64,000 nt of DNA from an uncultured Gemmatimonadota bacterium (GCA_964490075.1 CAZBBK010000009.1:1-64000), one strand, 5' to 3'. Shown: positions 64-18,923, numbered from the stretch's first letter. Notes: generated by a model from the letters alone, not told the origin. Numbers and translations: made by a program.

Positions 64-893
64 ATGAGGGACCGCGGCAGCAACTCGAACAAGGGTGCAC
101 GGACCCTGGTGCAGGAGGTCGGAAACTGGGTCTCTGGAGATCGGTTCTGGGACCGAGACATCGAGATAGCGAGCCTTATCCGCCTCTTGAGCGAGGGGGC
201 GCACGTGAGCATCGTGGCGCCGCGCCGCGTGGGCAAGACCAGCTTGATGCGAGAGGTGGCCGGTCGTCTGACCGAGGAATTCACTTGTCTTCAGGTCGAC
301 TTGCAGAAGGCTCGTCACGCCGGTGATGCGGTGGTGGAGCTGAGCCTCGCCACCCGACCCCACCGAGGCCTCTGGAGCAGAACCAAGGAGGTGTTTCGGA
401 ACGTCCTGGAAGAAGTGGATGAGATGAAGGTCGACGATGTCGCGATCACGCTTCGCAGCGGAGTCACTGGCGAATGGCAGCGCCGAGGAGACCGGCTCTT
501 GGATGCGATCGCTTCGGGAGAGAGGCCATGCACGGACGAATTCGTCTCCTGGTTGCGCGCGGCCACGCGGAGCTCAGTCATTTCGAGGAGCGCTTGAATA
601 TGGTCTTGGGATCGAAGCGCTTGCCTCTTGCTCTCGAGCTGCTCACCGAAACGGCGGTCGTTGGAGTCCTCAGTTCCGATGCAGCTCGATTCTTGCACGA
701 CGAGCGCTGCGCGGAAGTCGAAGGTCGTGGGGAGCTTCGTGACGTACTGGATCTGCTGGAGCACGACGGCTATCTACGTCGAAGCGACGGGAGCTATCTC
801 TTCGTCAGCAAGCTGGTCGCGGATTGGTGGCGGCGGCGTTTCGGGTTCGGCTATCGACCCGTGTCGCGGCGTCGTGGCGAGGACGCAACATGA
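64..893 (+). pseudogene. P-loop ATPase (AAA/STAND-like, C-terminal winged helix), disrupted by internal deletion/frameshift
   Basis: Frame 64-597 has Walker A APRRVGKTS but no intact hydrophobic Walker B (ERPCTDE). Frame 474-893 carries a typical C-terminus (RGHAELSHFEERL...LLEHDGYL...YLFVSKLVADWW). The frames join at about 556-567. Confidence 0.7.
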
Positions 894-3451
894 AACACAA
901 TCCCGGCTTCTTGACCGATCAGCAGCTCGTCGACAACTTCGTGGTTCGCCAGCACGAGCTCGAGCGGCTCTTGGCGATCATTCGGGCAAATACTCGATCG
1001 GCGAATCAACACGCGTTGGTCATCGGCAAACGGGGATCGGGCAAGACCACGTTGGTGCGACGGGTCGCGGCGGAGCTGCGGCGGGATCCCAGCTTGGGGG
1101 ACCTCTGGTTTCCCCTGGTGTTCGGTGAAGAGAGCTACCAGGTGGCGACAGCGGGCGAATTGTGGTTGGAGGCGTTGCTGCACCTGGGCGACGCTGCGGA
1201 CCGCAACCGCTGGGGCAAGATACGTCAGGAGCTGCTGCGAGAGCCCGACGACCGGCGCCTGCACGACGCAGCCTTGGCCCGGCTGCTCGATTTCGCGGAT
1301 GAAGCTGGGAAGCGCCTCTTGCTGGTGGTCGAGAATCTGCAGGATGTACTGGGCAAGCAGATGCCCGACAAAGAGGGTTGGACTCTGCGACACACGCTGA
1401 TGAACGAGAGTCGAATCATGCTCCTGGGGACGGCCACCGGCCGTTTCGAGGAGATCGATTCACCCGGCCGTGCCACCTACGAGATGTTCGATGTGCTCGC
1501 GATCGATCCCCTCGACGAGCAGGAGTGTCGCGATCTGTGGCTGGCAACGACAGGAGAGGAGCTGGAGGGGCGGAACATACGGCCCATGCAGATCCTGACC
1601 GGCGGGAATCCGCGTCTCCTGGTGATCTTCGCCGAGTTCTCCCAAAACCACTCCTTTCGCACGTTCAAAGCCGATCTCTATCGGCTGGTCGACGATCTCA
1701 GCGACTACCTCAAGGCCAACATCGAAGCCCTCAGCCACGACGAGCGGCGTGTATTCACAACGCTCTGCGACCTTTGGCAGCCCAGCTACGCGAAGGAGGT
1801 GGCCAACCAGGCGCGCTTCGATGTGAACAAGTCCAGCATGCTGCTGGGGCGGCTCTGTGATCGTGGTGCGGTAGAAGTCGTGGGCAGAGCCGGACGGGCG
1901 AAGTGTTACCAGGTGGCGGAGCGCTCCTACAACATCTACCACGTCATGCGCCGGCGCGGCGGCGCTCTCGCCCGCCTGGAGGCGCTGGTGGATTGCATGG
2001 CGCATCTCTATGGGCGGGAGCAGTTGGTGGAATGCGCTTCGTGGATCGCCGACGAAGCGTGTGACGCGCCACCCGGAGATCGGCCGGAGCTGCTGGCGGC
2101 ACTGGAGATGATGCTGCGGCGCGTGGGCGAGCTGCGGGAGGCGATCGCCGCGGCGTTGCCGGAAAAGCTGTTCGAGTTGGAGGGGGTTCCGGAGGGGGTG
2201 TTGATGCTGCGAGAGCGAGCGAGTGATGCGAAGGGGCCGCGGGCGGAGGACGAGGTAGACGAGTTTGCAGCTCTGCTGGAGTTCCTGGCGCCCCTGATCG
2301 ACGGTCTCACGAAGGGGCATCTGGGGACAGCGGAGTTCGTTGCCGAAGTCGGCGCGTCGGATCAGGAGAGGTCGTTGCTCACGGTGGCCTGGGCGGTTGC
2401 CGCGGTCGGTTGCCATCAGGTCGACAATCGCACGGCGACCGAGGAGATGGTTGATCTCGCCGTAGGAGCGGCCAGCAACACTGAGCGCCCGGATCTCGTC
2501 TTGTGCGCCGCCTTGCTCGGACGGATCGAGCCGGAGTACGCGGAGCGCCTCTTGGTAGCCGGAGCGAAGGAGGCGGACTATCCAGCAGAGGCCTACCTGC
2601 TATACGGGCTGTGGCTGCAGGAGCAAGGTCTTGACCGGAGAGGTGAGGCTACACTTCGGCTTGCGGTGGAGAACGCCGCCGGAGCGACCGATAGGGGTGC
2701 GGCTCTTCACCAGCTCGCGGTGCTGGTTGCCGCTACGGAGGACCGCCTTGGCGAAGCCGCGGACATCTACCGCGAATTCATGCGGCAGGGTGATTGCTCC
2801 GGAAGTGAGGCTGCAATGATCGGGGAGATGGCGGCTTTGGGGTCCTTCCGACTGGCCGGCCAGTGCTTTGCGGCCCTACGTCTCATGGACTACTTCGGAG
2901 CAAGCCCAGAGCAAGTCGCGGTCGCGGTCAACAAGCTCGTCGGTCGGGCCGAAGATCCCGGCGCATGTCATCGCGAAGCCAGCACCGCCCTTTCCCTCTC
3001 GCGGCGCCGGGAGGTCCTCAAGCTCGCTCTGGAGTCCCACCAGCAGACCCTCGAGATCGGTGCCGATGCGCGCCTTTCCCCACTCGCGGAGCTCCGCATC
3101 CACATCGGCCTCGGCGATACCCCCTCAGCCCTTGCGGTCTGCGAGCGCCTGTTCGACGAGCCCGAAGCCTCGATACCTGATGCGTATCAAACGCTCCCCC
3201 TGCTGGTGCGCCTGGCCGCCGCGGCGCCAAGCCCGATCCTGAGGCTCCTGGAGCGTTTGCCGGTCAAATGCGGTCTCGAGCCTCTCGCCGTTGCGGTGGC
3301 TCTTGATCTGGAGGAAGAGGTGCGGGCGCCCGCGGAGATGGTGGAAGTGGCGAGAGACCTGCTGGCGGATATCCGCGAAGCACGTCGAGCGGCGCAGGCC
3401 GGAGGCCCGGCACACGATGTCTCTCGAGAAGATGCTGGAGCCGCGGGCTGA
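890..3451 (+). CDS. STAND-like ATPase with winged-helix and C-terminal helical/TPR-like repeats
   Basis: ATG at 890 overlaps the upstream stop (ATGA). Walker A GKRGSGKT, Walker B-like LLLVVEN, GGNPR motif, wHTH-like AKEVANQARFDVNKSSMLLGRLCDRGAV, then helical repeats. Confidence 0.8.
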   Translation: MKHNPGFLTDQQLVDNFVVRQHELERLLAIIRANTRSANQHALVIGKRGSGKTTLVRRVAAELRRDPSLGDLWFPLVFGEESYQVATAGELWLEALLHLGDAADRNRWGKIRQELLREPDDRRLHDAALARLLDFADEAGKRLLLVVENLQDVLGKQMPDKEGWTLRHTLMNESRIMLLGTATGRFEEIDSPGRATYEMFDVLAIDPLDEQECRDLWLATTGEELEGRNIRPMQILTGGNPRLLVIFAEFSQNHSFRTFKADLYRLVDDLSDYLKANIEALSHDERRVFTTLCDLWQPSYAKEVANQARFDVNKSSMLLGRLCDRGAVEVVGRAGRAKCYQVAERSYNIYHVMRRRGGALARLEALVDCMAHLYGREQLVECASWIADEACDAPPGDRPELLAALEMMLRRVGELREAIAAALPEKLFELEGVPEGVLMLRERASDAKGPRAEDEVDEFAALLEFLAPLIDGLTKGHLGTAEFVAEVGASDQERSLLTVAWAVAAVGCHQVDNRTATEEMVDLAVGAASNTERPDLVLCAALLGRIEPEYAERLLVAGAKEADYPAEAYLLYGLWLQEQGLDRRGEATLRLAVENAAGATDRGAALHQLAVLVAATEDRLGEAADIYREFMRQGDCSGSEAAMIGEMAALGSFRLAGQCFAALRLMDYFGASPEQVAVAVNKLVGRAEDPGACHREASTALSLSRRREVLKLALESHQQTLEIGADARLSPLAELRIHIGLGDTPSALAVCERLFDEPEASIPDAYQTLPLLVRLAAAAPSPILRLLERLPVKCGLEPLAVAVALDLEEEVRAPAEMVEVARDLLADIREARRAAQAGGPAHDVSREDAGAAG

Positions 3452-3540
3452 ACCTGGCGAGACCGGCACACTCGGGAAGATGTCGGCGGGAAACCACGGT
3501 GGAGGCGGCGGGGCGCGCCTCCGCCTGCTCGCGGCCGGCG

Positions 3541-3945
3541 TCAAGTGGGCTCTCGCCGCCCGTTTCCAGCGCCCATCCACCCCACCACGAGCCACGCACC
3601 CCCCAGGCTCAGCAAGCTGGCGGCCAGGTCCATCCAGTCGAAGGTGTAGGAGAGGCGCGCCAGGATGCCGGGGCGTGGCACGAGCTGCAACAGCTCCAGG
3701 CCGGCGGCGATCGCGGCCGTGATCAGGGCCGACTGAAGCGGTGTCAGGCGGGTGCGCTCGCTCTTGCTCGAGAGCAGCAGGAAGAAGAGCCCGGGGGGGC
3801 CGAGGACGCTCGGGGCGATGCCGATCGAGGTTGCCGCGGCGGCTTCGGGAGAGAGGCGCAGCAGCTTGATCGGGATGATCAGGAGCAGGCAAGCCGCACC
3901 GATCCAGCCGAAGAGATCGCGTCTTGCGGGGCCGATCGGATCCAT
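3541..3945 (-). CDS. Small integral membrane protein (about 4 TM; VanZ/DUF2809-like)
   Basis: Hydrophobic segments and an ELLQ...TFDWMDL motif. Confidence 0.6.
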   Translation of the reverse strand: MDPIGPARRDLFGWIGAACLLLIIPIKLLRLSPEAAAATSIGIAPSVLGPPGLFFLLLSSKSERTRLTPLQSALITAAIAAGLELLQLVPRPGILARLSYTFDWMDLAASLLSLGGAWLVVGWMGAGNGRREPT

Positions 3946-3996
3946 CCGCCTCCTGGGCTATTATTCGCGCCTGATGAGACACGCGAGGATAACTCA

Positions 3997-5430
3997 GTGA
4001 CCAGGTCCGACCCCAACGGCTTTCCGCTCCGCGCCGCCCTCACCGAACGGCTCGAGGAGCACTACGGCCTGAGCTGGCCGGGCAAGGGGCGGGCCGCGGC
4101 GCTCGCGGACACCCCTCCGAGCGGCGTCTTGCGTCCCCGTCCGACCGAGAGCGTCAACTGGGAGGCAACGCGCAACCTGATGATCGAAGGCGACAATCTC
4201 GAGGTCTTGAAGCTGCTGCGGGAGACGGACTCGGAAACCGTGTCGCTGATGTACATCGATCCGCCCTACAATACCGGCAACGATTTCGTCTATTCGGATC
4301 GCTTTCGAGGCGCCAGACGCGACCATCGCCAGCCCGCGGCACACCTGCACAGCGCCTGGCTGAACATGGTCTATCCGCGGCTCCTGGTGGCGCGCGATCT
4401 GCTGCGCGACGACGGAGTGCTGGCGGTGAGCATCGACGAGCACGAGTCGCACAATCTGCGCCATCTGCTCGACGAGGTGCTGGGCCCGGAGAATTTCATC
4501 GCCGAGCTCTGCGTCTCGCTCAACCCCAAGGGGCGTCAGCTCACCCGCTTCTTCGCCACAGCCCACGAGTACGTGACACTCTACGCCAAGAACGTCGCCA
4601 CCTGCGCACTGCAGGCGAGCTGCGCCAGCCTGGTCGACAGGCGCGACTTTCCGCGCAGCGATGACCGCGGGCGCCATCGACTGCTTCCCCTGCGCAACAC
4701 CAACAAGAAGTTCAATCCGACCACTCGCCCCAACCTCTACTTCCCACTCCACGTCGATCGCGCCGCCGGAACTGTGTCGACCGTCTCCGGGCCGTCCACG
4801 GTCGAGATCTACCCGGTCTTCGGCGACGGCAATCCCGCGGTCTGGCGCTGGTCTCGATCAAAGGTGGCGCGACAGTCCGACGAGCTCCTCGGTCGCCGGG
4901 TGCGGGGGCGCCTGGGTGAGCGCACCGACGTGTTCCAGAAGGACTACCTGGGCACCGGCCGCAAGAAAAAGCTCAAGTCGATCTGGCTCTCCGACCGGAT
5001 CGGCTCCACCGACGTCGCGGTGGAGGAGCTGAAAGGACTGATCGGCCCGGTCTTCCAGACCCCCAAACCGACCGCCCTGATCCGCGCGCTGATCCGCCTG
5101 ATGCCGCCCGACGCACGGGTGCTCGACTTCTTCGCCGGATCGGGCACCACGGGCCACGCGGTGATGGCCCAGAACGCCGCCGACGGGGGCAGCAGGCGCT
5201 ACATCTTGGTCCAGCTCCCGGAGCCTCTGCGCGTCGAATGCGCCGAGCAGAGGGCCGGCCGGGAGCTCTGCGAGCGGCTCGGGCGCCCCGCCAACATCGC
5301 CGAGCTGACGAAGGAGAGGCTGCGCCGGGCGGCGCGCGCGATCGCGGAGGAGCACACCCGCTGCGCGGCCGACCTGGGCTTTCGAGTGTTCGAGCTGGAC
5401 CGGCCCGGGCAGCATCAGGGAAATGTGTAG
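3997..5430 (+). CDS. Site-specific DNA adenine methyltransferase, type III Mod-like, orphan
   Basis: GTG start after GAGGA. Motifs NLMIEGDNLEVLKLL, IDPPY, HSAWLNMVYPRL, PKP, DFFAGSGTT and GFRVF. No res gene is adjacent. Confidence 0.9.
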   Translation: MTRSDPNGFPLRAALTERLEEHYGLSWPGKGRAAALADTPPSGVLRPRPTESVNWEATRNLMIEGDNLEVLKLLRETDSETVSLMYIDPPYNTGNDFVYSDRFRGARRDHRQPAAHLHSAWLNMVYPRLLVARDLLRDDGVLAVSIDEHESHNLRHLLDEVLGPENFIAELCVSLNPKGRQLTRFFATAHEYVTLYAKNVATCALQASCASLVDRRDFPRSDDRGRHRLLPLRNTNKKFNPTTRPNLYFPLHVDRAAGTVSTVSGPSTVEIYPVFGDGNPAVWRWSRSKVARQSDELLGRRVRGRLGERTDVFQKDYLGTGRKKKLKSIWLSDRIGSTDVAVEELKGLIGPVFQTPKPTALIRALIRLMPPDARVLDFFAGSGTTGHAVMAQNAADGGSRRYILVQLPEPLRVECAEQRAGRELCERLGRPANIAELTKERLRRAARAIAEEHTRCAADLGFRVFELDRPGQHQGNV

Positions 5431-6971
5431 CTGACTACCTCGCTGAGCGCGCAGCTGGAAGCATCGGCTGCCTGCAAGTAGACCGTGAGGCCGCTGGCCG
5501 GCCCGGGCACCAGGACCGACCAGGTGGCAACACCGTTGCCGTCGGCCTGGGGAGTGCCGAAGAGAGTCGGATTGCTCAACCCCAGATAGGTGCCCGGGCA
5601 CTGCGGGAGGATCTCCCACGAGCCGGGCGTGAGGCTGTAGAAGAGGCCGACGGTGCCGCCCGGCGTGGCGCCGCGCACGCTGAACACACTGCTCTGTCCC
5701 GCCAGCCCGGGGGTCGGTTCGGCGAGATCGAGCGCGCTGCCGCAGCCATCGTCGAGGCAGCCGCGGTTGTCTTTGTGGGTGATGATCTGGGCGATGGCGT
5801 CGGTGCCGAAGCTGGTGACGATTCCCGAGCAGCCGCCGAGGCAGGGACACATGATGCGGCAGCCGCCACAACCGAAGCAACCGGAGCAGCAGTGCTCGGC
5901 CGACCAGTTGTGGCCCAGCTCGTGGGCCATCAGACCGACCCGATTGGTGTAGTTGCTGGTGTAGCGTTCGGTCAGGCCGTAGCCGAAGCTGGACTTGCAG
6001 ATCGAGCTGAGGTAGGCGATCCCGATGGTGCCACCGTTCAGATTGCGGCCGGTCACCAGGTGGGCGACGTCGCGACGGATATGAGTTTGCTCGGCCTTCC
6101 AGTGGTCCTTGAACTGGTCGAGGAGCACGTCGGGGCTGCTGCTCGTGTAGGGATCGTTGCTGGTGGTGCGGACGATGATGTGGGTGAGGTCGTAGCAGAT
6201 GCCGGTGTCGCTCTGGTAGATCGCCTCGACACCGTTGAGCACGTTCTCGATGTCGGCGACGGTATTGGCGACCGACCGGCCGTTGTCGGCGTAGAATTCG
6301 TAGTCGGCATCGAAGGCGATCTCGGCGGTCTTGTCGTCCTCATCGCCCTGGACGATGGGCGCCGGGAGCTGCGTGCCAGGGGAGAAGGGGCTCGATGATT
6401 CGAGCTGCCCCGGGAGCCGGAATCGCCCCGGCAGCGACTGCGCCGCACCGGTGCCGCAGTGGTGATCGGTCGGCAGGATGTCCGCATGGCGGTAGACGAC
6501 ATGCTCCAGCGGCGCGGCGCCGTCGAGGTACTCGGAGAGCGGTTCGACGGTCCAGAGCTCACCATCGGCGAGCTCGATCCAGGCGCTGAGGCGGCCGTCG
6601 ATCAGCGATGCGGCGACCCGGCTGCCCGGGCGTCCGGCGACCGACCCGCGGTAGGTGGCGGGGGACGGGATCGCGGCGCGCACCATCCGCCCCTGGTCGT
6701 CCTGAATCGACACGGCGAAATCGGTCGCCCGCAACGAGTAGGGCTCCAGCAAGAGCACCTGCTCCTGGCCTTCGAGACGCACGAACGGCGTCAGCTCACC
6801 GTCGCCGCGAGGTTCGAGGCCGGCCAGGAGCTGGATGTCCCAGGAGGCGAGCGATGCCTCGAGGGTGGTGATCCGCCCCCCGGCGACCGGAGCGGCGGGC
6901 GCGGAGGGAGCGAGAAGGAGGATCGCTGTGGCGCACATGGACGCTGCGAGGGCGAATCTGCCGAGACTCAT
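5415..6971 (-). CDS. Secreted M12/reprolysin-like zinc metalloprotease with C-terminal beta domain
   Basis: Signal peptide, prodomain ending HHCGT (cysteine-switch-like), HELGHNWSAEH zinc motif and Met-turn (IM). Confidence 0.88.
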   Translation of the reverse strand: MSLGRFALAASMCATAILLLAPSAPAAPVAGGRITTLEASLASWDIQLLAGLEPRGDGELTPFVRLEGQEQVLLLEPYSLRATDFAVSIQDDQGRMVRAAIPSPATYRGSVAGRPGSRVAASLIDGRLSAWIELADGELWTVEPLSEYLDGAAPLEHVVYRHADILPTDHHCGTGAAQSLPGRFRLPGQLESSSPFSPGTQLPAPIVQGDEDDKTAEIAFDADYEFYADNGRSVANTVADIENVLNGVEAIYQSDTGICYDLTHIIVRTTSNDPYTSSSPDVLLDQFKDHWKAEQTHIRRDVAHLVTGRNLNGGTIGIAYLSSICKSSFGYGLTERYTSNYTNRVGLMAHELGHNWSAEHCCSGCFGCGGCRIMCPCLGGCSGIVTSFGTDAIAQIITHKDNRGCLDDGCGSALDLAEPTPGLAGQSSVFSVRGATPGGTVGLFYSLTPGSWEILPQCPGTYLGLSNPTLFGTPQADGNGVATWSVLVPGPASGLTVYLQAADASSCALSEVVSYTFP

Positions 6972-7090: not shown

Positions 7091-7885
7091 TCAACCCGCG
7101 GCGGCACAGCCGCTGGACTGGTGCAGCCATTCGCCGCAGTCCCAGCCGAGCTGCGCTTCGAGCGCCATGATCTCCGGCTCCAGGATCGACCGCAGGTGCC
7201 GGAATTCCTCCTCGCTCATCGCGCGCCGGTAGGAGGTGGCATTCACGGTCTTGGCGGCGACTCCGTCGATGCGACGCACGCCGAGGAAGTCGCAGATCGT
7301 GTCGAGGGTCGCCTGGGGACGGTGGATCAGCTCTTCGCTGCGCAGGATCAGCGTCTGCTCTTCTCCGAAGTAGTGCCAGACACGACGGATCTGCTCGCTG
7401 TAGCGGCCGCGATCGACGTACGAGAAGTTGGGGTGCTGCAGAGGTCGCTGCGCGCGACAGCGCTCGCGTTCCTGGTCGATCGCCGCCAGGAGGGGCAGCC
7501 ACTCCGCCCCCCGCTGCCGCTCCATGGTCCAGTTGGAGTAGGCGCGCTCGATCGGGTTGCGCAGGAGCAGGATCCACTTCGTCGCCGAGTTGTAGGTCCA
7601 GATCCTGCGGGCCGCCGGCCACCAGTACATGTAGGTGGGCGTCGCTTCGCCGCGCAGCAGGTCGCGGCGCGTCCAGTCGAAGAGGGCGTGGTACGGGGAG
7701 ATGTTGACCGTCTTGCCCGCAAAGAATCTTTCCCGATCGAAGAAATGGGGCTCCTTGGCCGCTGCCATTGCGAGCTGGGGATGCAGGCGCAGGTAGTGGT
7801 CGAGCGCGGAGGTGCCCCCTTTTTGGGTTCCGCCGACGACGAAGTTGATTCGCTCCGGTCCTGTCGATTTGCGATGTTCATCCAT
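7091..7885 (-). CDS. PAPS-dependent sulfotransferase
   Basis: 5'-PSB GTQKGGTS, KEPHFFD, GEATPTY and 3'-PB LRNPIERAYS. The start could be 7912. Confidence 0.88.
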   Translation of the reverse strand: MDEHRKSTGPERINFVVGGTQKGGTSALDHYLRLHPQLAMAAAKEPHFFDRERFFAGKTVNISPYHALFDWTRRDLLRGEATPTYMYWWPAARRIWTYNSATKWILLLRNPIERAYSNWTMERQRGAEWLPLLAAIDQERERCRAQRPLQHPNFSYVDRGRYSEQIRRVWHYFGEEQTLILRSEELIHRPQATLDTICDFLGVRRIDGVAAKTVNATSYRRAMSEEEFRHLRSILEPEIMALEAQLGWDCGEWLHQSSGCAAAG

Positions 7886-8034
7886 TGGCAGGGGCCACTC
7901 CTGCAGGTCCACCTCTCACGCGATTCTGTCCGATTCATCGGACGATCGACGCGGCCTTCTTGACCGGTTTCTGCGGAATCGAGCGCGGGACCGGGCGCGG
8001 GGTGGGACGCCGGGCATGGGGACCCGGCGCCAAT

Positions 8035-8150
8035 CGCGTCACAACTCCTCGATCTCTATCGAGAGTGCCGAGTTGCGACGCGAATACGGTCGTAACTCCC
8101 GACTCTCATTCGAGATCGGGGAGTTGCGTCGCGAAAAGGCGTCGTAACGC
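8035..8150. repeat. Composite imperfect palindrome built from alternating-orientation units
   Basis: Arms 8035-8079 and 8089-8133 are reverse complements at 35/45 positions. The sub-motif GAGTTGCGWCGCG occurs at 8070 and 8121, with degenerate inverted copies at 8035, about 8086 and about 8139. Confidence 0.7.
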
Positions 8151-8659
8151 GCGTCTCTGGTCGCGGAGCCAGGCTTTGTGTCATGGATGGGGGCGATCCA
8201 AGGGCCTCCGCTCCGCGCCAGCAGGACCACTGAGAGCGCGACGCATGAAGCCCCCGCGGCCAGCGTTGCGGCCCGATCGGCGATCGGGGCTCTCGCGGAC
8301 GTTGGAGCGCCTGCCGCGGAGGAGCGCGGCGGAGGCGCGTGGCGTCGAGGCCCGACCGGGAGACGCCCGGGGAAGACGCGCCCACTCCATCCCACTCCGT
8401 CTTGAACAGGGCTGCCCGACGTTTCGATATGAGACCGCATCGTCGACATCCCCGGGGGGGAACCGCTCTCGACAGCGGCGCTTCTCGTGCCCCCGCCCCC
8501 GCCCCGGGCCATGCCCGACTCCGATGCCCGAATCGGACCTGGGCAGGGCATGGGCAGGTTTCGTGGCGTTCCGGCCGCTCCCCGCGTAGAGCAGGCGCTC
8601 TATCGAAAGCTCTGGCGGAATGACGCCCCGGTGCCTCCAAGACGGGAAAGAGCTTACCC

Positions 8660-11600
8660 TTGCATGCGACGCGCGACGCGCTGGAGATCGGCTTGGCGAA
8701 CGAAGTTCTCGACGGACGCTTCCGCCTGGAAGAGACGCTGGGGCACGGGGCCGCGGGGGCGGTTCATCGGGCCCGTGACCTGGCGCGCGAGCGGGATGTG
8801 GCGCTGAAGCGGCTGATCGAGCCGGAGCGGCAGGCGCGGCGGCGGCTCCTGGGGGAGTACCTGGCGATGCGCCGCATCTCCCACCCCCACGTGGCGCGGG
8901 CCTTCGACTGGGGGATCGGGGGCGACTACTTCACGATGGAGCTGGTCCGCGGGGTGGCCTTCGATCGCTTCGTGCGCGACCACGGCGCGGAGGCCTCGCT
9001 GCCGGTGCTGCGCGACCTGCTCGACGGGCTGGCGACGATCCACGCCCACGGGCTGGTCCATCTCGACGTGAAACCGGCCAATCTGCTGGTCGCCGGCGCC
9101 CAGCATCCCGACGCGCGGATCATCGACTTCGGGCTGTTGAGGAGGCTCGGCAGCCGGATTCACGGGGCCACCGGAACGCCCGCTTATGCGGCCCCCGAGG
9201 TGCTAGCGGGAGAGGGGCGGATCGACGGACGGGCCGATCTCTTCTCGCTGGGCGTGGTGCTGCTCGAGGCGCTCACCGGAGAGCGGATCGCGGCGGACGG
9301 GTCGGCCGCGCTGCTGCTGGAGCGACCGGCCTGGATCGCGGCGCGGCTGGCGGGGTTGGACGGAGTGCCGGCGGAGCTGCGGCGGCTGCTGGAGGCGCTG
9401 GTGGCCCACGCTCCCGACGAACGGCCGGGGTCGGCGCTCGATGCCCGGGCGCTGGCCGAGGGCGAGGAGCCGCGCGGGCGCTGGCCGCTGGTGAAGCCGA
9501 AGCTGGTGGGGCGCGCCGACGCGCTGGACGAGCTGCGCAGGTCGATCGACGCGGTGCACGAGGGACGCGCCGCGGCCAAGCCGGTGATCCGCATCGTCGG
9601 CGAGCCGGGGATCGGCAAGACGCGGCTGCTCGACCGGCTGGAGATCCGGCTGCGCGCCCAGGGCACGATGACGGTGCGCTCCGGCTGGACGGCGGCGTCG
9701 GCGGCGCCTTTCGCGCCCTTCCGCGGGCTGCTCGGAGAGCTGGAACGGCAGCTCGCCCGGGCGCCGGGGGCGGAGGGGACGGGGTTGCGGGCGGTAGGGG
9801 AGCTGATCGACGAGGGACGCGACCCTCAGCGAGCGGTGCGCGCGGTGGCGGACTTTGTCCTCGACGCGGTTCGGGCGCTGCGACCGCTGCGCTGGGTGGT
9901 GTTGCTGGAGGACGCGCACTGGGCCGGTCCGATCGGGTCGCGGCTGCTGGAGGAGCTGGCGGAGCGGCTGCCGCTGGCCGGGGCGGCGCTGGCCCTGGTG
10001 CTGACCCAGCGGCCCGACGCCGATCCGCGGCCGCCACGCCCCGGCACCGTGCACATCGGGCTGGGGCCGCTGCACCACAGCGCGGTGGAGCGGATGGCGG
10101 CGGGAATGTTGACGGCGCGCCGCCTGCAGCCCGAGATCACCCGCACGTTGTTCCAGGCGAGCGCTGGCAACCCCTTGTCGATCACCGAGATGGTGCGCAG
10201 CCTGGTGCTCTCGGGGGTGCTGCGCACGCGCCAGGGCACCGCCTACCTGGAGCGGCCGCTGGAAAGCGTTCTGAGCGCCCGGAGCCCGGCGTCGGACGGG
10301 CTTGCGGCGGCGCTGCGGGAGCGCATGAAGCTGCTCAGCCGTGCCGCGCAAAAACTGGTCGGGCAGGCGGCGGTGCTGGGCCCGCGGATCCGCTATGACG
10401 TGCTCTCGGCGGTGTCGGGGCTGGAGGACGAGGCGGTGATCGACCACCTGATGGAGGCGTTTCGCCTGGGGGTGATGGAGCGCAGCCCGGAGGCCGGAGG
10501 GGCGGGGCTGCGCTTTACGCACGAACGGGTGCGAGAGCTGACCGCGGAATCGCTCTCGGCCGACCAGCGGCGCACCCACCACCGCGCGGCGGCCGACGTG
10601 CTGCTGGCGATCGGCGACGACGAGCTGCGCGCCGATGCCGGCGTGCACCTGTTGCGTGCCGGGGACCGGGCGGCGGCGCGCGACCACCTGGTGGCCGGGG
10701 CACGGGACCGCAGCCGGGCGGCGCGGCTGCGGGAGTCGATCGACCTCTACCGAATGGCGCTGGAATGCCCGGCGAAGCGGCGCGACGAGGGCTTGGTGCG
10801 GCTGGCACTGGGGGAGCTGCTGCGTCAGATCGGGAGCCCGGAGAAGGCCGAGCGGATGCTGCGCCGCGGACTGGCGCAGGTGCTGCCGCGGCCGGCGTCG
10901 GCGGCGTTGCTCGAGCGCCACGACCTGGACGGGGTCGAGGGAGGGGACGCCAAGGCGGCCGGCGCCTTTCTGAGCGCGCTGGGGAGCGTCAGCCTGCACC
11001 GCGGCGACCTGGAGCAGGCGCGGCGGCGCTACGGCAGCGCCCTGGAGCTGCACACCCGGGCCGGCGAGGCGACCGAGGCGCGGGCGGTGCGGGTCAACCT
11101 GGGCGTGGCGCTGGGCAGCGCCGGCGACATCCCGGCGGCGATCGAGCTGCTCGATGAGGCGCTCTCGCCGGGCGGCGAGCCGACCGAGCTGCAGACGGTG
11201 GCGTTGATCAACCTCGGCCATTTCCGCAATCTCGCGGGGCAGGGAAGGCGCGCGCTCGAGGCCTACCGAGAGGCGCTGGCGGCGGCGCGGGCGCGCAGCG
11301 ACGAGTTCATGGCGGCGACGGTGCTGGGCAACCTGGGGGAGGTGCTGCACGCCATGGGGAGGCTGACCGAGGCGCTGGAGCACCACCAGCGGGCGCTGGA
11401 GATGTGCGAGCGGATCGGCGACTCGGCGGGCAGCCTGAACGCGATGAACGGCTGCGGCGAGGTGTTGACCGAGATCGGCCGCGACCGGGAGGCGCTCGAG
11501 ATGCTCGAGCGCAGCGTCGGCGCCGCCCGGCGCGCCGGATCGCTGGCGCTGCTGGGGCGGGCCCTGAACCGGCTCGGCGAGGGACTGATCCGCAGCGGCG

Positions 11601-12435
11601 ACTACGAGCGGGCCGACAGCGAGCTGCACGCCGCGCTGGTCGCCAACCGGCGGGTCGGAGAGCCGGGGCCGATTGCCTGGACGCTGAAGACGCTGGGGAC
11701 GGCGGCCCTCTCGGCGGGCGACTTGCGTCAGGCCGAGACGCTGCTGCGCGAGGCGGGCGAGGCGGCGCGGCAGGTGGCGCGGCCGCGCATCCAGGCGGCG
11801 GTGCTGCACCACCTGGCGCGCATCGACGCGCTGCGCGGCGACCTGGGGGCGGCGCGTGTGGGCCTCGAGGAGGCGCTGCGGCTGTTCCGGGAGATCGCGC
11901 ACCCCGCCGGCGAGGCGCGCGCCCTGCTGGCACTCGCGCAGCTCGACGAGACCGAGGGCAAGGACCCCGACGAGCGGTCGGCGGCGGCCGTGGAGATCGC
12001 TCGCGCGGTGGGCGGCCGGGCGCTGCTGGCCCAGGCGCGGGTGGCGCGCGCCGCCTGCCTGGCGCGCGGCGGACGCTTGGCGGCGGCGGAGCGTGAGGCG
12101 CGCGCCGCCGTCGACGAGCTGAGCGGGCGCCCGGCGGCGCAGGCGATCGCGCGGGTGCGCCTGGGATCGATCGCCGCGGAACGGGGGCGCACCAACCGCG
12201 CCGAGCGCGAGCTCGAGGCGGCGGCGAAGAGCCTGGGGCGGCTGGGGCGGCGGCTGGCCGAGGGGATCGCCCTACTCGCCTGGGGATCGATCGAGTACGG
12301 TCTCGGCGACGACGAGGCCGGGGACCGGCTGGGGGCGCGCGCCCGCGCGATCTTTGAACGCATCGGAGCGCCACTCCTGGCGGAACGTGCGCGGCATCTG
12401 AGCCGCGCCTCCCCGGAGGTCCCCTGGAGGGTCGT

Positions 12436-12439
<4 letters not shown>
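8660..12439 (+). CDS. Ser/Thr protein kinase fused to STAND/AAA ATPase and long TPR array
   Basis: Kinase motifs GHGAAG, VALK, HLDVKPAN, DFG, APE and DLFSLG. Walker A GEPGIGKT, Walker B VVLLEDAHW, GNPL, then multiple TPRs. The start may be TTG at 8693 (GGAG upstream). Confidence 0.9.
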
Positions 12440-13965
<1,526 letters not shown>

Positions 13966-13975
13966 CGATTCGGCC

Positions 13976-14023
13976 TCGTCGAAAACGACGAATCCCACCC
14001 TTCGCGCTCGTTGGAATCACCGA
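13976..14023. promoter_or_regulatory. Candidate tandem upstream activator sites for the sigma54 promoter
   Basis: Perfect palindrome TCGTCG-AAAA-CGACGA (13976-13991) and near-palindrome TCGTTG-GAAT-CACCGA (14008-14023), 32 bp apart and about 100-145 bp upstream of the -24 element. Confidence 0.6.
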
Positions 14024-14121
14024 GATCGGCGTCGCCCCGGCGCCGGACGAAGCCCCGGCTGATCCGGCCAAGCGGCGGAGCTCCAGCTACTTGCGCGCTA
14101 GCGCCGGATGCCGGCCCGATC

Positions 14122-14137
14122 TGGCACGATCGCTGCA
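14122..14137 (+). promoter_or_regulatory. Sigma54 (-24/-12) promoter
   Basis: TGGCACG-ATCG-CTGCA against consensus TGGCACG-N4-TTGCW, 41 bp upstream of an ATG with GGAGGAG RBS and just downstream of an EBP gene. Confidence 0.8.
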
Positions 14138-14177
14138 ATTGTGGTGCGCGACGCCAACCCATGCCCGGAGGAGATTC

Positions 14178-14969
14178 ATGATGCTCGCCACCGCCGCCAC
14201 CCTGCTGCTCACCGGCAGCGCCTGCGCCGACACCCAGATCCTCAGCCACCGCGTGCTGGACGAAGGCCAGTTCTCCGCCATCACCGAGCGCCGCTACGAG
14301 ATCATCGACAATGAGCGCGACTGGGCGGCCCTCTGGTTCGAGCACCAGGGCCTGGAGCAGGGCGTCCGCGACCTGCCCGAGATCGACTTCAAGCAGGAGA
14401 TGGTGCTCGCCACCTTCATGGGTCCGCAGCCGAACTACGGCAACCGCATCTTCGTCGATATGGTCGCCGAGCACGACTCCAGGTGCGCCGCCAAGATCGG
14501 CGAAGAGATCGCCCGCGTCGGTCCCCGCGTCTACACCACCCCCTTCCAGTTCAGTGCCGTCAGCCGCACCGATCTGCCGGTCTGGTTCCTCGACCGCGAG
14601 CATCGGATCGAGACCCTGGACCGCGGCTCCGACTGCGACCAGGATCAGCCCCAGACCCAGGTGATCCGCGACCGCAAGACCTGGCAACAGATTTGGGATC
14701 TGACCTTCCACAAGAGCATGGCGCCGGCGGTCGACTTCGAGACTGAAATGGTGTTGGCGGTGTTCCTCGGCGACCAGCCGACCAGCGGCCACTCGGTGCG
14801 CATCGTCGATGCCTCCGAGGCCGAGACCGAAGCCGGCACGGTGCTGGTACCGATCGCCTTGCATCGCACCCCCACCGAGGCCGCCCTGCCGATCATCACC
14901 AGCCCCTACCACTTCGTCGTCACCCCCGCCAGCGACCTGCCGGTCAGCTTCCAGACGATCGACTTCTGA
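14178..14969 (+). CDS. Secreted protein with two PrcB-C-terminal-like domains
   Basis: Signal peptide. Internal duplication LPEIDFKQEMVLATFMGPQPNYG / APAVDFETEMVLAVFLGDQPTSG, ending TTPFQF / TSPYHF. Confidence 0.75.
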   Translation: MMLATAATLLLTGSACADTQILSHRVLDEGQFSAITERRYEIIDNERDWAALWFEHQGLEQGVRDLPEIDFKQEMVLATFMGPQPNYGNRIFVDMVAEHDSRCAAKIGEEIARVGPRVYTTPFQFSAVSRTDLPVWFLDREHRIETLDRGSDCDQDQPQTQVIRDRKTWQQIWDLTFHKSMAPAVDFETEMVLAVFLGDQPTSGHSVRIVDASEAETEAGTVLVPIALHRTPTEAALPIITSPYHFVVTPASDLPVSFQTIDF

Positions 14970-15004
14970 GGCGAGGCGGCGCGGCGCACCGAGCGCGGTT
15001 GAGT

Positions 15005-15154
15005 TTGACATTCTCCGCACCGAACGGGGTTCAGTTTGACAGTTGACCCCGACTTGACGTCGACTTGGGCCTCTGGGGCGCCTATCGGGGCCGAATCGGG
15101 CTCCGAAGGGTCGGAGATGTCAAACTGAACCCCGTTCGGTGCGGGAGATGTCAA
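15005..15154. repeat. 150-bp inverted-repeat element (REPIN/MITE-like) between convergent genes
   Basis: 37-bp arms 15005-15041 and 15118-15154 with 27 bp perfectly complementary (TGTCAAACTGAACCCCGTTCGGTGCGG) and 3 mismatches overall. Confidence 0.75.
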
Positions 15155-15267
15155 GTTCAGGCGGGCTGGGTGTGTTCGCGGCGCGAAGTCGGACCCGAGG
15201 CCGCCGCCCTGCTCCTAGAGACGATCCGCGCCGCTCGCGTCGGCGACATCGGTCACCCCTTCCAAAA

Positions 15268-16545
15268 CTAGCCCCCCTCCCGATCCTGCCCCCACGGCCA
15301 GCACACCACCACGCGACACCCCCCCTCGCTCCCCTCCTCGATGCGCACCGTGCCGCCATGGCGCTCCAGCACGCGGCGCACGATCGCCAGACCGATGCCG
15401 TAGCCGGAGCCGCCGGCGGCGCGGTCGAGGCGGACGAAGGGCTCGAAGACGCGCGCGCGCTCGTGCTCGGGGATGCCCGGGCCGTCGTCCTCGACTTCGA
15501 TCCGCAGCTGCTCGGGCGCGGCGGCGGCACGCAGCGCCACGCCGGCGGCGGCGTAGCGCAGGGCGTTGGAGAGCAGGTTGCCGATGACGCGGCGGAAGAG
15601 GCGCGGATCGGCGTCTAGCTCGCAGCCGTCCAGGTCGGCGTCGAGCGCGAGGGCGATGCCGAGGGCGGCGGCTTCGTCGGCCATGCCGCCGACCAGGTCG
15701 GCCAGCTCGCGACCCGGCCAGGTGATCCCTTCGCAGGTCTCGCCGCTTTCCAGGCGGGCGTAGGTCAAGAGCTCGTCGACCAGGCGTGAGAGTTCCTCGA
15801 AGTCGCGGTCGAGCTCGCCGATGCGCCGGTCGCGCTCGGCCGAATCTTCGACGTGGGTGAGGATGTGCATCGCGGTCTGGATGCGGGCCAGGGGCGTGCG
15901 CAGCTCGTGGGAGACGGCGCGCAGCAGCTCGCGCTGCGACTCGATGGTGGCGTGGGTGGTCTCGGCCATGCGGTTGAGGGCGCGGGCCAGGGTGAGGGTC
16001 GGGCCGTCGATCTCGGGGGCGCGGGCGCTCAGATCGCCGCCGGAGATGCGCACGGCGGTGCTCTCGAGCAGGCGCAGCTCCTGTTCCACGGGGCGCAGCA
16101 GGCGACGGATGGCGAGGGCGCCGAGCAGGGGGACCAGCAGAGCCAGGGCGGCGGCGACGTAGTACTCGGTGTTCGGGTAGGGGGGCAGGGGGCCGAGGCG
16201 CAAGGTCTGGTCGCCGCCGGCGATCGGCAGGAAGATGTACTCGTGGTCGGCGTAGTGCCAGATGAGCTCCGATCCCCACTCGATCTCCTCCTGGACCTCG
16301 ACCGGCAGCGCCTCCCAGTCCAACACGCCGACCGGATAGCCGTAGCGCTCGCCGGCGGCGGCGGCGCGGACCGGATCGGCCGCGAGCTGCTCGGCCTCGG
16401 CGCCCAGGGGGCCGTGCAGCAGCGCCTCGTAGTAGCCGGCGTACTGGTCGGGCCACAGAAACTGGTCGTAGAGCCAACCGAGCGCGCCGACCGCCGAGCA
16501 GACCACGAAGACCATCGCCCAGAGGCGCAGGAAGAGCCCTCTCAC
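15268..16545 (-). CDS. Membrane sensor histidine kinase (HAMP-HisKA-HATPase, RstB/CpxA-like)
   Basis: Two TM, HAMP, SHELRTPL, NLLSNALRYA, DDGPGI and GYGIGL. Confidence 0.92.
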   Translation of the reverse strand: MRGLFLRLWAMVFVVCSAVGALGWLYDQFLWPDQYAGYYEALLHGPLGAEAEQLAADPVRAAAAGERYGYPVGVLDWEALPVEVQEEIEWGSELIWHYADHEYIFLPIAGGDQTLRLGPLPPYPNTEYYVAAALALLVPLLGALAIRRLLRPVEQELRLLESTAVRISGGDLSARAPEIDGPTLTLARALNRMAETTHATIESQRELLRAVSHELRTPLARIQTAMHILTHVEDSAERDRRIGELDRDFEELSRLVDELLTYARLESGETCEGITWPGRELADLVGGMADEAAALGIALALDADLDGCELDADPRLFRRVIGNLLSNALRYAAAGVALRAAAAPEQLRIEVEDDGPGIPEHERARVFEPFVRLDRAAGGSGYGIGLAIVRRVLERHGGTVRIEEGSEGGCRVVVCWPWGQDREGG

Positions 16546-17252: not shown

Positions 17253-18923
17253 CTACCTCCGGCGGCGGCGCGCCGACAGCGCGTCGATTACTTCCGCCGC
17301 CGCCCGCTCGCCGCTCTCCGCGGCGCCCTCCAGGAAGCCCTGGTAGATCGGCGCGGTGTGGTCGCCGGCGAAGTGCACCTTGCCGCCCTCCACCTCGCCC
17401 TCCAGGCCGCGGATGGTGGAGAACTGGCCGAGCGCGTATGCCGGGTAGGAGCCGCGCAGGATCGGCGACGTGTGGGGGCAGGCGCGGAACACTCGCCCGG
17501 TCCACTTGTCGCTCAGGCCGGGCAGCAGCGGCTCCACGTCGCCCAGGAAGGCGGCGGCGCGGCTCTCCGGAGTGCCCAGGTGGAACTCGGCGCCGTAGTC
17601 GCCGCCGACGTAGTCGACCAGCAGCCCGGCGTCCCCTTCCTGGGCGCCCGACGCCCCCCAGGTGGCCTGGAAGTCGCGGTCCGACCAGATGTCGCCGCTG
17701 CTTCCCAGGCTCCACCAGTGGCGGTCGCTGAACTGCATGATCAGCTTGGAGTTGGTGGCGATGCCGAGGTTCTGGATGGCGTTGCGCTTGACCTCGCGCA
17801 GGTCGAGCGCGGAGAGGTCGACCTCGCGCAGGATGTGGAAGGGCAGGGCCAGCACCAGCCGGTCGACCCGGGTCTCGACGCTGCCACCGATGGTGTCGAA
17901 GCTGAGCCGCACGCGGCCGCCCTCGGTGGCGGCCGACACCAGCCGGTGGCCGCGCTCGATTTGCCCGGGGATGCCGCCGGCCAGGCGCGCGGTCAGGAGA
18001 TCGGTGCCGCCCTTGACGTGCCAGAGGGTGAGCGGCCCCTCGTCGCCGCCGGCCAGGGCACCCGCGGCGCGTCGCCGCCGGCCGACCGCGGCGCCGCGAG
18101 GGCCAGTTCCGCCCCGCGCCTGCTCCTCGCCGCCGCCGGCCAGCCCGTAGACGATGTTGAGCGACGAGAGTCGATCCGGCTCCATACCCCATTCGTTGCG
18201 GATGTGCACGTCGAGCAGCTGGCCGATGCGCGAGCTCATGCCGCCCGCCACCCGGCTCTCGATCCACTCGGTGACGCTCATGTGGTCGAGGGTGCGGCCG
18301 TAGGGCGTGCTCTGGTAGTAGGTGGTGTCGGACCCGGCGCGCCAGCGGTCGCGCGCCGCCTCGCGCACCACCGGCATCAGGTCCTGCACGATGCGCCAGA
18401 AGGGGTAGGGACGGCCGTCGATCTCGAACATGCTGCGGGCATCGGGCGGGGTGTTGGCGTAGAGGTTCTCGGCCTCCAGCCCCAGCTCGTCGATCAGCCG
18501 CAGCACGGTGTGGTGGTAGTCGTCGATGAACTCGGCGTGGGCCTCGCCGATCTGGCCCTGGTCGAAGAAGCCGCGGATCGTCCAGCAACGCCCTCCGATG
18601 CGCGTGTCGGCCTCGTAGACTCTCGCCTGGATGCCGGCCTCGCGCAGCCGGTAGGCCGCCGTCAGTCCCGCCAGTCCGGCCCCGACCACCGCCACCTCGG
18701 CGTCCGTGCGCAGCGAGCCGGAGCTCGCCGCGGCGGCCGCGCGCAGCGGCCCGCGGGCGATCGGCGGCAACGCTGCGGTCAGCAGCAGTCCACCGCAGGC
18801 GGTGCCGGCGCGACCGATGAAGCGCCGGCGCGATGGCTGCTCGGGGCGCAGCTCGGCGGCGACCAGCGTCTCGGCGCGGCCCCACGCACTCTGGAACAGA
18901 TGGGTCTTGATCGACCGTGCCAT
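17253..18923 (-). CDS. Flavin monoamine/L-amino-acid oxidase family protein, possible Tat substrate
   Basis: SRRRFIG plus a hydrophobic stretch, GAGLAGL, EAxxRIGGR and FAGDHT...GFLEGAAESG. Confidence 0.85.
   Translation of the reverse strand: MARSIKTHLFQSAWGRAETLVAAELRPEQPSRRRFIGRAGTACGGLLLTAALPPIARGPLRAAAAASSGSLRTDAEVAVVGAGLAGLTAAYRLREAGIQARVYEADTRIGGRCWTIRGFFDQGQIGEAHAEFIDDYHHTVLRLIDELGLEAENLYANTPPDARSMFEIDGRPYPFWRIVQDLMPVVREAARDRWRAGSDTTYYQSTPYGRTLDHMSVTEWIESRVAGGMSSRIGQLLDVHIRNEWGMEPDRLSSLNIVYGLAGGGEEQARGGTGPRGAAVGRRRRAAGALAGGDEGPLTLWHVKGGTDLLTARLAGGIPGQIERGHRLVSAATEGGRVRLSFDTIGGSVETRVDRLVLALPFHILREVDLSALDLREVKRNAIQNLGIATNSKLIMQFSDRHWWSLGSSGDIWSDRDFQATWGASGAQEGDAGLLVDYVGGDYGAEFHLGTPESRAAAFLGDVEPLLPGLSDKWTGRVFRACPHTSPILRGSYPAYALGQFSTIRGLEGEVEGGKVHFAGDHTAPIYQGFLEGAAESGERAAAEVIDALSARRRRR

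Follow-up and report, generated by a model that had tools for sequence, protein, structure and literature searches.

Mycobacterium tuberculosis PknK, which we take to be a STAND Ser/Thr kinase of the 'Kinase + MalT-like' kind, has an AraC-type regulator as its reported partner. Proteins designated 'Kinase + MalT-like' are listed by Krupa and Srinivasan (2005), and cyanobacterial 'dual protein kinases' with the layout Pkinase-...-GAF-HisKA-HATPase are described in the same source (PMC1262709). In NorR, the GAF domain is described as repressing the AAA+ domain (PMC2941729). Treponema denticola PrcB is described as a 23-kDa lipoprotein of the dentilisin complex; it interacts with the protease PrtP, whose expression depends on it (PMC8167434). 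Here we describe a locus encoding a kinase-STAND-TPR protein, a sigma54 enhancer-binding protein (EBP) and an exported PrcB-like protein, located at positions 8660 to 14969 of a 64,000-nucleotide stretch of DNA (hereafter the window) from an uncultured marine Gemmatimonadota bacterium.

We consider it probable, though well short of certain, that the first two genes encode a two-protein version of a kinase-STAND-TPR-GAF-sigma54 activator regulator, and that this regulator acts on PrcB-like genes. The window represents contig C9 of genome G000, which consists of 5.7 Mb in 136 contigs and is 95% complete. It was compared with G003, an independently assembled genome of a sister genus, with G002 and G001 (the latter 83% complete), and with G004, a class-level relative. 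Genes around the locus were called by third-position G+C (GC3) and annotated with Pfam; the G+C content of the region is 65-78%.

The first gene (8660-12439, + strand; intact open reading frame (ORF), GC3 0.92) encodes P0001, a Ser/Thr kinase-STAND(AAA_16)-TPR protein of 1259 aa. Its start may be TTG 8693 instead of 8660, judging from the start of the G002 orthologue. In brief, a Hanks-type kinase domain (residues 22-257, 8723-9430; Pfam Pkinase E 5.6e-34, 118 bits) is followed by a STAND-type P-loop NTPase (AAA_16, residues 281-441, 9500-9982; 58.7 bits against a cut-off of 32.6, E 1.3e-15) and by a TPR/MalT-like repeat array at about residues 761-1259 (10940-12436; TPR_12 132.8 bits, 5e-39; TPR_MalT 52.8 bits), all on the + strand. 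The kinase motifs VALK, HLDVKPAN (non-RD), DFG and APE were read from the translation and by regular expression, and the catalytic Lys is present. The Walker A motif of the STAND domain, also found by regular expression, is GEPGIGKT. P0001 has the make-up of a STAND Ser/Thr kinase, Hanks catalytic motifs and an AAA_16/STAND P-loop followed by a repeat sensor, and both Pfam and the motifs bear out the original prediction of a non-RD (HLD) kinase fused to a STAND ATPase and a TPR array. The orthologues in G003 (C305) and G002 (C213) are 60-61% identical to P0001. A scan of JGI metagenome contigs with P0001 gave a single match, an unrelated kinase domain.

The second gene (12436-13965, + strand; GC3 0.95) encodes P0002, an EBP of 509 aa with a GAF domain, a sigma54 AAA+ domain and a helix-turn-helix (HTH) domain. 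Pfam places GAF at residues 26-162, Sigma54_activat at 196-362 (3.4e-68, 229 bits, cut-off 20.2) and HTH_8 at 464-503 (37.1 bits, cut-off 22), and also finds AAA_lid_14. The translation contains GETGTGKE (Walker A), FLDEVG and, at residues 271-276 (13246-13263, + strand), an intact GAFTGA sigma54-contact loop, whose columns G271-A276 are invariant in the alignments. We assign P0002 to the EBPs on its AAA+ sigma54-interaction domain with GAFTGA, its C-terminal Fis-type HTH and the presence of rpoN in the genome (one gene; Sigma54_DBD 214 bits at C3:180547-181023). Pfam gave no Response_reg match on P0002, the N-terminus being the GAF domain, and NCBIfam ntrC aligns only from residue 184 and below its cut-off. 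Since P0002 carries no REC domain, it should receive no His-Asp phosphorelay input, as had been proposed. The orthologues in G003 and G004 are 78% and 54% identical to P0002, respectively. In an EBP scan of assembled genome contigs, L047 (= G003:C305) was the only orthologue among the 80 loci kept; the rest match from about residue 170 and represent generic AAA+ domains.

The two genes overlap by four bases, ATGA, at 12436-12439 (+ strand, within GTATGACG), in which the kinase ends with TGA and the EBP begins with ATG, and a Shine-Dalgarno (SD)-like GGAGGG is found at 12424-12429 (+ strand), 7 nt before the EBP ATG. The overlap suggests translational coupling, by which both proteins would be produced together. 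G003 shows the identical 4-base ATGA overlap although the kinase tails differ. Among the runs listed, the stretch occurs in four DNA runs, all from one marine-metagenome study, and in no RNA run; contigs of the runs X3 (12142-12527), X2 (12402-12735) and X4 (12405-12845), which are separate samples of the same study as the probable source, bridge position 12436 with 0 differences and no indel. The ATGA junction in G003 and the identical contigs show that the split between kinase and EBP did not arise from a sequencing error. This excludes a read-level frameshift at about 12430, which would have made the pair one fused gene and had been named as an alternative; the ATGA-coupled GAF-AAA-HTH activator with intact GAFTGA that was predicted instead agrees with the ORFs, Pfam and the translation.

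Using the EBP as query against longer proteins gave at least 6654 matches at E<=1e-30 among 8000 scored candidates. Among the 120 listed, 101 have a length of at least 1500 aa, and these cover 92-100% of the EBP, including GAF, at 37-43% identity. The Pfam lists of the long matches hold Pkinase, AAA_16, TPR, GAF, Sigma54_activat and HTH_8, and the fused proteins are 1600-1860 aa long. In the databases they are named only 'sigma 54-interacting transcriptional regulator' or 'Nif-specific regulatory protein'; examples are P0016 (1744 aa) and P0013, from a Thermoanaerobaculia metagenome-assembled genome. The original prediction that these domains are often fused in one polypeptide is confirmed by this search. 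That the locus represents an undescribed system, as also predicted, does not hold, the fused equivalent being abundant in databases and present in three copies in G000.

The window proteins are collinear with the fused proteins. P0001 aligns at the front and P0002 on the last ~500 residues in 26 of the 26 fused proteins listed (residues 10-1210 and 1233-1743 of P0016), and the sum of 1259 and 509 aa, 1768 aa, fits the fused length. The break falls in a linker, after the conserved helix at the end of the TPR array and before the first GAF helix. This C-terminal helix of P0001, FERIGAPLLAERARHL, is conserved in the fused relatives directly before their GAF domain; in alignment A2, R1243 and R1245 are invariant and A1241 almost so (helix pattern FERLxA...RA). 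The HxD triplet of the 101 long fused proteins reads HLD (31), HRD (27), HND (17), HMD (11), HGD (5) or HHD (4), with no match in 6, and we thus regard a non-RD kinase as the norm of the fused family. DFG was found in 91 of these proteins, the STAND Walker A in 92 and an exact GAFTGA in 93.

Genome G000 holds fused and split forms side by side. We found three fused Pkinase-TPR-GAF-Sigma54_activat paralogues (C30, C84 and C18; at E<=1e-6 Pfam lists GAF for C30 and C18 only) and three fused Pkinase-AAA_16-TPR-GAF-HisKA-HATPase proteins. On C4 (L037), a second pair is split at the TPR|GAF boundary: a Pkinase-AAA_16-TPR gene (94-3750) is followed after 25 bp by a GAF-PAS-HATPase_c-REC hybrid kinase gene (3775-5748). 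On C22 (L043 2758-7859, - strand), a 465-aa kinase without STAND and TPR directly precedes an EBP of 513 aa with a GAF-like N-terminal part (E 2e-10, 32% identical to the window GAF); a second EBP, of 510 aa, comes next. The TPR|GAF boundary thus appears, from these forms with two different outputs in one genome, to be a recurrent cut-and-join point. The whole genome has 52 Sigma54_activat matches to its one rpoN. Matches to Hanks-type kinases number in the dozens (71 first-look candidates for P0001), and for 5.7 Mb G000 is regulator-rich.

The window pair differs from the fused family in not being one polypeptide: a stop and a new start (ATGA) separate the halves in G000, in G003 and in the contigs of the three further runs. 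Literature searches, which covered neither supplements nor the myxobacterial kinome of Perez et al. (2008), gave no experimental study or description of the fused family or of the split. As far as sequence comparison can tell, the pair is a split variant of a known fused regulator family for which no experimental study was found, and the two stand in a Rosetta-stone relationship. By the same comparison, what is new here is the split that is conserved with its ATGA in a sister genus, the site and promoter module that recurs before a second PrcB-like gene in G000 and before PrcB-like genes in three related genomes, and the second split in G000.

The EBP gene is followed by an intergenic region with two palindromic sites and a sigma54-type promoter. 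Site 1 (13976-13991) is the perfect palindrome TCGTCG-AAAA-CGACGA, TCGTCGAAAACGACGA, within the 20-mer CTCGTCGAAAACGACGAATC (13975-13994), and its centre lies ~140 bp upstream of the -24 GG. The palindrome has 2 matches at <=2 mismatches in the window against 0.17 expected. Site 2 (14007-14024), a weaker imperfect palindrome, CTCGTTG-GAAT-CACCGAG, is 32 bp from site 1, centre to centre. The promoter, TGGCACGATCGCTGCA (14122-14137, + strand), has its -24 GG at 14123-14124 and its -12 GC at 14135-14136, which predicts a transcription start near 14147-14148. The strict -24/-12 pattern is found twice in the window (0.10 expected), a count reached in 1 of 100 shuffles; the second match, TGGCACTGGCGCTGCT, is located at 42452-42467 (+ strand), and a further EBP gene is found at ~54228-54728. 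We also asked whether the hairpin at 13976-13991 could terminate the EBP gene; this was ruled out, as it has no T-run and the sequence recurs before promoters without a preceding EBP gene.

In an alignment of the G000 and G003 regions between EBP and target gene, everything but site 1, site 2 and the -24/-12 element has diverged. The three conserved islands are CTCGTCGAAAAC[G/A]ACGA, AATCACCGAGAT[C/G]GG (the right half of site 2) and TGGCACG[A/G]T[C/T]GCTGCAA; the promoter in G003 reads TGGCACGGTTGCTGCA. The two palindromic sites and near-consensus -24/-12 promoter of the original prediction are therefore present and conserved in G003, in addition to the one rpoN in the genome.

The putative target gene (14178-14969, + strand) encodes P0148, a predicted exported protein of 263 aa with a signal peptide, a lipobox-like LTGSAC and two tandem PrcB-like domains (Pfam PrcB_C 34.2 bits, cut-off 24). 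The start is ATG 14178, with a ribosome-binding site (RBS) GGAGGAG at 14167-14173 and a frame supported by GC3. It replaces TTG 14091 of the mechanical ORF call. With the gene starting at 14178, the promoter lies upstream of it. Pfam finds PrcB_C in the second half of P0148 only, so that part of the predicted secreted protein with two PrcB-like domains is not seen by Pfam; the tandem arrangement is supported by two stretches of similarity to NCBIfam denti_PrcB, by a repeated consensus across 27 homologues (alignment A4) and by an AlphaFold2 (AF2) model (mean pLDDT 89.2) in which residues 20-141 and 145-262 form two domains that share one topology. The lipobox-like Cys is also present in the 66% identical P0149 and not in the 50% identical P0153. 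A terminator-like hairpin lies 44 nt past the stop (15013-15029, + strand) and the next gene is convergent, from which we conclude that P0148 is monocistronic. This hairpin and a near-identical one in inverted orientation (15146-15130, - strand) are found between the convergent PrcB-like and histidine kinase genes (…CCGCACCGAACGGGG TTCAGTTTGA).

The PrcB_C family has 2751 representative clusters at E<=0.001, with one-, two- and three-domain forms. A Foldseek search of the P0148 model against PDB gave nothing at E<=0.001, VIA-align wide gave a top Z of 3.1, to NigD-like proteins, and ESM Atlas gave PrcB_C clusters only, at 0.88-0.89. Judged by its model, P0148 is without a convincing solved structural relative, and the exported PrcB-like domains have no known fold. 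By analogy, we guess that P0148 could serve a secreted enzyme as partner or anchor. No protease gene is directly adjacent to the PrcB-like gene; one for a reprolysin-like M12B zinc metalloprotease (5415-6971, - strand) is located ~2.4 kb from it.

Further copies of the site point to a second target. The 20-mer CTCGTCGAAAACGACGAATC has 27 matches at <=4 mismatches in the G000 genome, and only two at <=2, the window site and C117:5258. Both are followed by TGGCAC-N5-xTGCA, at 147 nt in the window and 103 nt on C117, and then by a PrcB-like gene. The C117 promoter reads TGGCAC-N5-ATGCA, and a second palindrome is found 64 bp from the first (start to start). The product of the C117 gene is a paralogue with a plain signal peptide, 30% identical to P0148. 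Two genes follow the C117 gene on the same strand (L135 1248-4127, - strand): the product of the first has 960 aa and three Lamin Tail Domains (LTD, E 6e-49), and that of the second has 364 aa and a weak tocopherol-cyclase-like match.

Orthologues of the C117 paralogue in G002:C213 and G003:C107 have the same layout, each with a pair of palindromes centred ~176 and ~85 bp before the GG of TGGCAC-N5-ATGC[T/G]. In G002, this unit of palindromes, promoter and PrcB-like gene lies immediately upstream of the kinase orthologue, in divergent orientation. The PrcB-like gene of G004 has in front of it CTCGTTAAAAACAGCGAATC, a 16/20 match to the 20-mer, and the promoter TGGCATGTTTCATGCA. A search with the PrcB-like query gave 12 loci, half of which (L001, L002, L003, L004, L008 and L009) have both site and promoter by regular expression or by eye. 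L007 has a promoter-like match only and L012 a 3-mismatch site only, and neither element was found at L005, L006, L010 and L011. The HTH recognition helix TE[ST]RIR[AS]K is common to the EBPs of G000, G003 and G004 and differs in two fused proteins aligned, which fits one DNA specificity. We suggest a candidate two-gene regulon with a well-defined candidate enhancer. The single secreted output originally proposed has to be given up, as the second PrcB-like gene on C117 has the same site and promoter.

Based on these observations, we propose the following mechanism. The first gene would provide a cytoplasmic sensor with an active-looking non-RD kinase, a nucleotide-driven STAND switch and a TPR array, and the second a NifA-like GAF-AAA+-HTH activator, made together with the sensor through the ATGA. 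The activator would bind 7-4-7 palindromes (consensus CTCGTCG-AAAW-CRACGAG) ~85-175 bp upstream of -24/-12 promoters and, with sigma54 RNA polymerase, turn on at least two exported PrcB-like genes, the one directly downstream and the one on C117. The sensor half would most likely act via the GAF domain by direct contact. On a signal, either GAF-mediated repression would be relieved or the AAA+ ring assembled, through Ser/Thr phosphorylation or through STAND oligomerisation, which would gather EBP protomers. Kinases of the non-RD type do not depend on phosphorylation of the activation loop, and that of P0001 would fit control by assembly. We infer that the kinase controls the EBP because the two are fused elsewhere, are translationally coupled here and keep their order in one sister genus. 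A complex prediction for TPR 760-1259 with GAF 1-195 (alignments A2 and A3) gave scores of 0.21 and 0.22 against a mark of 0.32 and, being made without control pairs, weighs neither way.

We speculate, more tentatively, that [kinase-STAND-TPR] + [GAF-output] might be a general modular signalling logic parallel to two-component systems; we hold this to be possible and clearly the less probable of our two proposals. The STAND kinase would be a trans-acting receiver, the GAF domain a docking or phospho-acceptor adaptor and not a small-molecule sensor, and the outputs (sigma54 activator, histidine kinase, GGDEF) would be interchangeable, with parts fused or split. If so, natural split pairs would show that the sensor half works in trans, and would give a first tractable entry to thousands of giant regulators, with a DNA site and a two-gene regulon as read-out.

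Several findings weigh against the two-protein regulator proposed above. The order kinase-EBP-PrcB-like is kept on G003:C305 (60% identity for the kinase, which is cut by the contig end, 78% and 63%), and this is the only other genome with kinase synteny; the G002 contig breaks inside the kinase, and no orthologue was found in G001 with these queries. The EBP is closer to an unfused protein (54%, G004) than to the fused proteins (37-43%), and the kinase is closest to the unfused P0125 (44%, 1260 aa, no output domain), compared with 20-29% for the fused proteins. A quick maximum-likelihood tree built from 93 AAA+ cores joins the EBPs of the window and G003 as a supported pair (99*) and places this pair outside the main fused clade, on a backbone without resolution. 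The input consisted of 42 of the 52 hits of one search (the 10 weakest or partial were dropped), 30 fused database proteins, 20 of the 79 non-orthologous EBP-scan loci and G003; the label 'fused' needs at least 3 changes on this tree. As both halves are nearest to unfused proteins and the pair lies outside the main fused clade, a recent fission is not supported. The strict -24/-12 pattern occurs 20 times in the whole genome against ~9 extrapolated, a roughly twofold enrichment that makes a pattern match alone weak; the argument for the promoter therefore rests on conservation.

The last of these findings concerns the EBP orthologue of G004 (54% identical over its full length, 52% in GAF), which shares the HTH helix. 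It is encoded downstream of a Wzy_C-TPR membrane protein gene and has no adjacent kinase, and the target module of site, promoter and PrcB-like gene persists. EBPs of this lineage can thus function with no STAND kinase next to them, and their GAF domain may by itself sense a ligand. Unlinked kinase and EBP genes had been named as an observation that would speak against a kinase-controlled EBP; they are unlinked at class level, in G004, and linked in the sister genus, in G003. The case speaks for an explanation in which kinase and EBP are co-transcribed but independent, with a GAF-EBP that senses a small ligand alone in the manner of NifA, NorR and FhlA, a kinase with other substrates, and an overlap that reflects operon packing. 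Two other stand-alone kinase-STAND-TPR genes that we examined are in line with it: the one on G000:C1 has no GAF gene directly downstream (a PmbA/TldD ORF follows ~750 bp on), and the one on G004:C1 is followed by a hydantoinase gene. However, both halves are found as one chain, in the same order, in thousands of proteins; the ATGA coupling is kept in a second genus; and on C4 of G000 the same TPR|GAF split is seen with a histidine kinase output. By the Rosetta-stone principle, fusion in some lineages signals a physical or functional interaction of the parts. We consider independence of the two regulators unlikely on balance, and it is for the G004 EBP that we leave it a real minority chance.

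Conflict systems often include STAND NTPases that have TPR sensors, and the kinase could be an NLR-like conflict or defence sensor with the EBP as its transcriptional arm and PrcB-like proteins as induced countermeasures, for example surface protease partners or inhibitors. The PADLOC models mad6, PD-T4-6 and MkoA match the kinase domain, the M12B protease gene lies upstream, and the PrcB of T. denticola is described as a lipoprotein of a protease complex (PMC8167434). However, the PADLOC matches span the generic kinase domain only (residues ~14-265), with no match to a full-length defence model; the neighbours examined (sulfotransferase, histidine kinase and amine oxidase) include neither mobile-element nor defence-island genes; and the family is multi-copy and housekeeping-like in G000. 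We regard a defence role as improbable. Finally, a broken fused gene (frameshift or nonsense pseudogene) or an assembly artefact, with one or neither half working, would account for the way in which the two proteins, laid one after the other, align with fused relatives and are parted in the pre-GAF linker, and is very hard to credit given that both ORFs are intact with all catalytic motifs kept, that the EBP has an ATG and SD of its own, that both halves are nearest to unfused proteins, and that the junction recurs in an independently assembled other genus and without indels in three further runs.

Upstream of the kinase gene and divergent from it are the M12B protease gene and a sulfotransferase gene (7091-7912, - strand), separated from the kinase gene by a ~750-bp stretch without codon-position G+C signal (7913-8659). 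Downstream, the convergent gene next to the PrcB-like gene encodes a HisKA-HATPase_c protein (15268-16545, - strand), and an amine oxidase gene is found at 17253-18923 (- strand). An Rfam search of 7800-15300 gave 0 matches at E<=1. Two adjacent long palindromes are located at 8030-8135 of the window (arms 8034-8056/8061-8083 and 8091-8107/8112-8128). We ruled these out as regulator sites, as they belong to a dispersed repeat with copies, 80-96% identical, on >25 contigs and often at contig ends; they look like repetitive extragenic palindrome (REP) or miniature inverted-repeat transposable element (MITE) type elements.

Fused activators of this family are very numerous in environmental bacteria, and a chain of ~1700 residues is hard to dissect. 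In the natural two-protein version, the halves can be expressed separately, mutated and mixed, and the pair comes with a short conserved site, a sigma54 promoter and two candidate targets. We suggest that the value of the locus lies mainly in being a tractable entry point to the fused regulator family.

Compared with described systems, the pair is closest in layout to the fused Pkinase-AAA_16-TPR-GAF-Sigma54_activat-HTH_8 proteins, which have the same domains in the same order and typically a non-RD kinase. The fused proteins are one chain, whereas the window pair is two polypeptides with a conserved ATGA, 20-29% (kinase) and 37-43% (EBP) identical to them. PknK-like proteins share with P0001 the N-terminal Hanks kinase, the AAA_16/MalT-like NTPase and the repeat sensor. 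Unlike PknK with its AraC-type partner, P0001 has as its partner a GAF-sigma54 activator whose gene is coupled to its own by the ATGA. The cyanobacterial dual protein kinases have the front module of P0001 and a GAF adaptor before the output, and G000 itself has three fused proteins and one split pair of this type; their output is a histidine kinase, whereas that of the window pair would be a sigma54 activator.

NifA, NorR and FhlA have the same GAF-AAA+-HTH plan as P0002, with GAFTGA and HTH_8. NCBIfam nifA (TIGR01817) is the best match of P0002, and since its 406.1 bits are below the cut-off of 528.85, P0002 is not NifA. P0002 differs from these three regulators in that its examined neighbours include no nif, nor or hyc gene and that a STAND kinase is encoded in front of it. 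The EBPs of the NtrC response-regulator type have an N-terminal REC domain, where P0002 has GAF instead. P0148 resembles T. denticola PrcB in its PrcB_C domain, predicted export and lipobox-like signal, and differs from it in reaching 56 bits against the denti_PrcB (NF033596) cut-off of 125, in having two tandem domains and in being monocistronic. Unlike PrcB, P0148 has no adjacent prcA or prtP, and the nearby protease gene is of the reprolysin and not of the subtilisin type.

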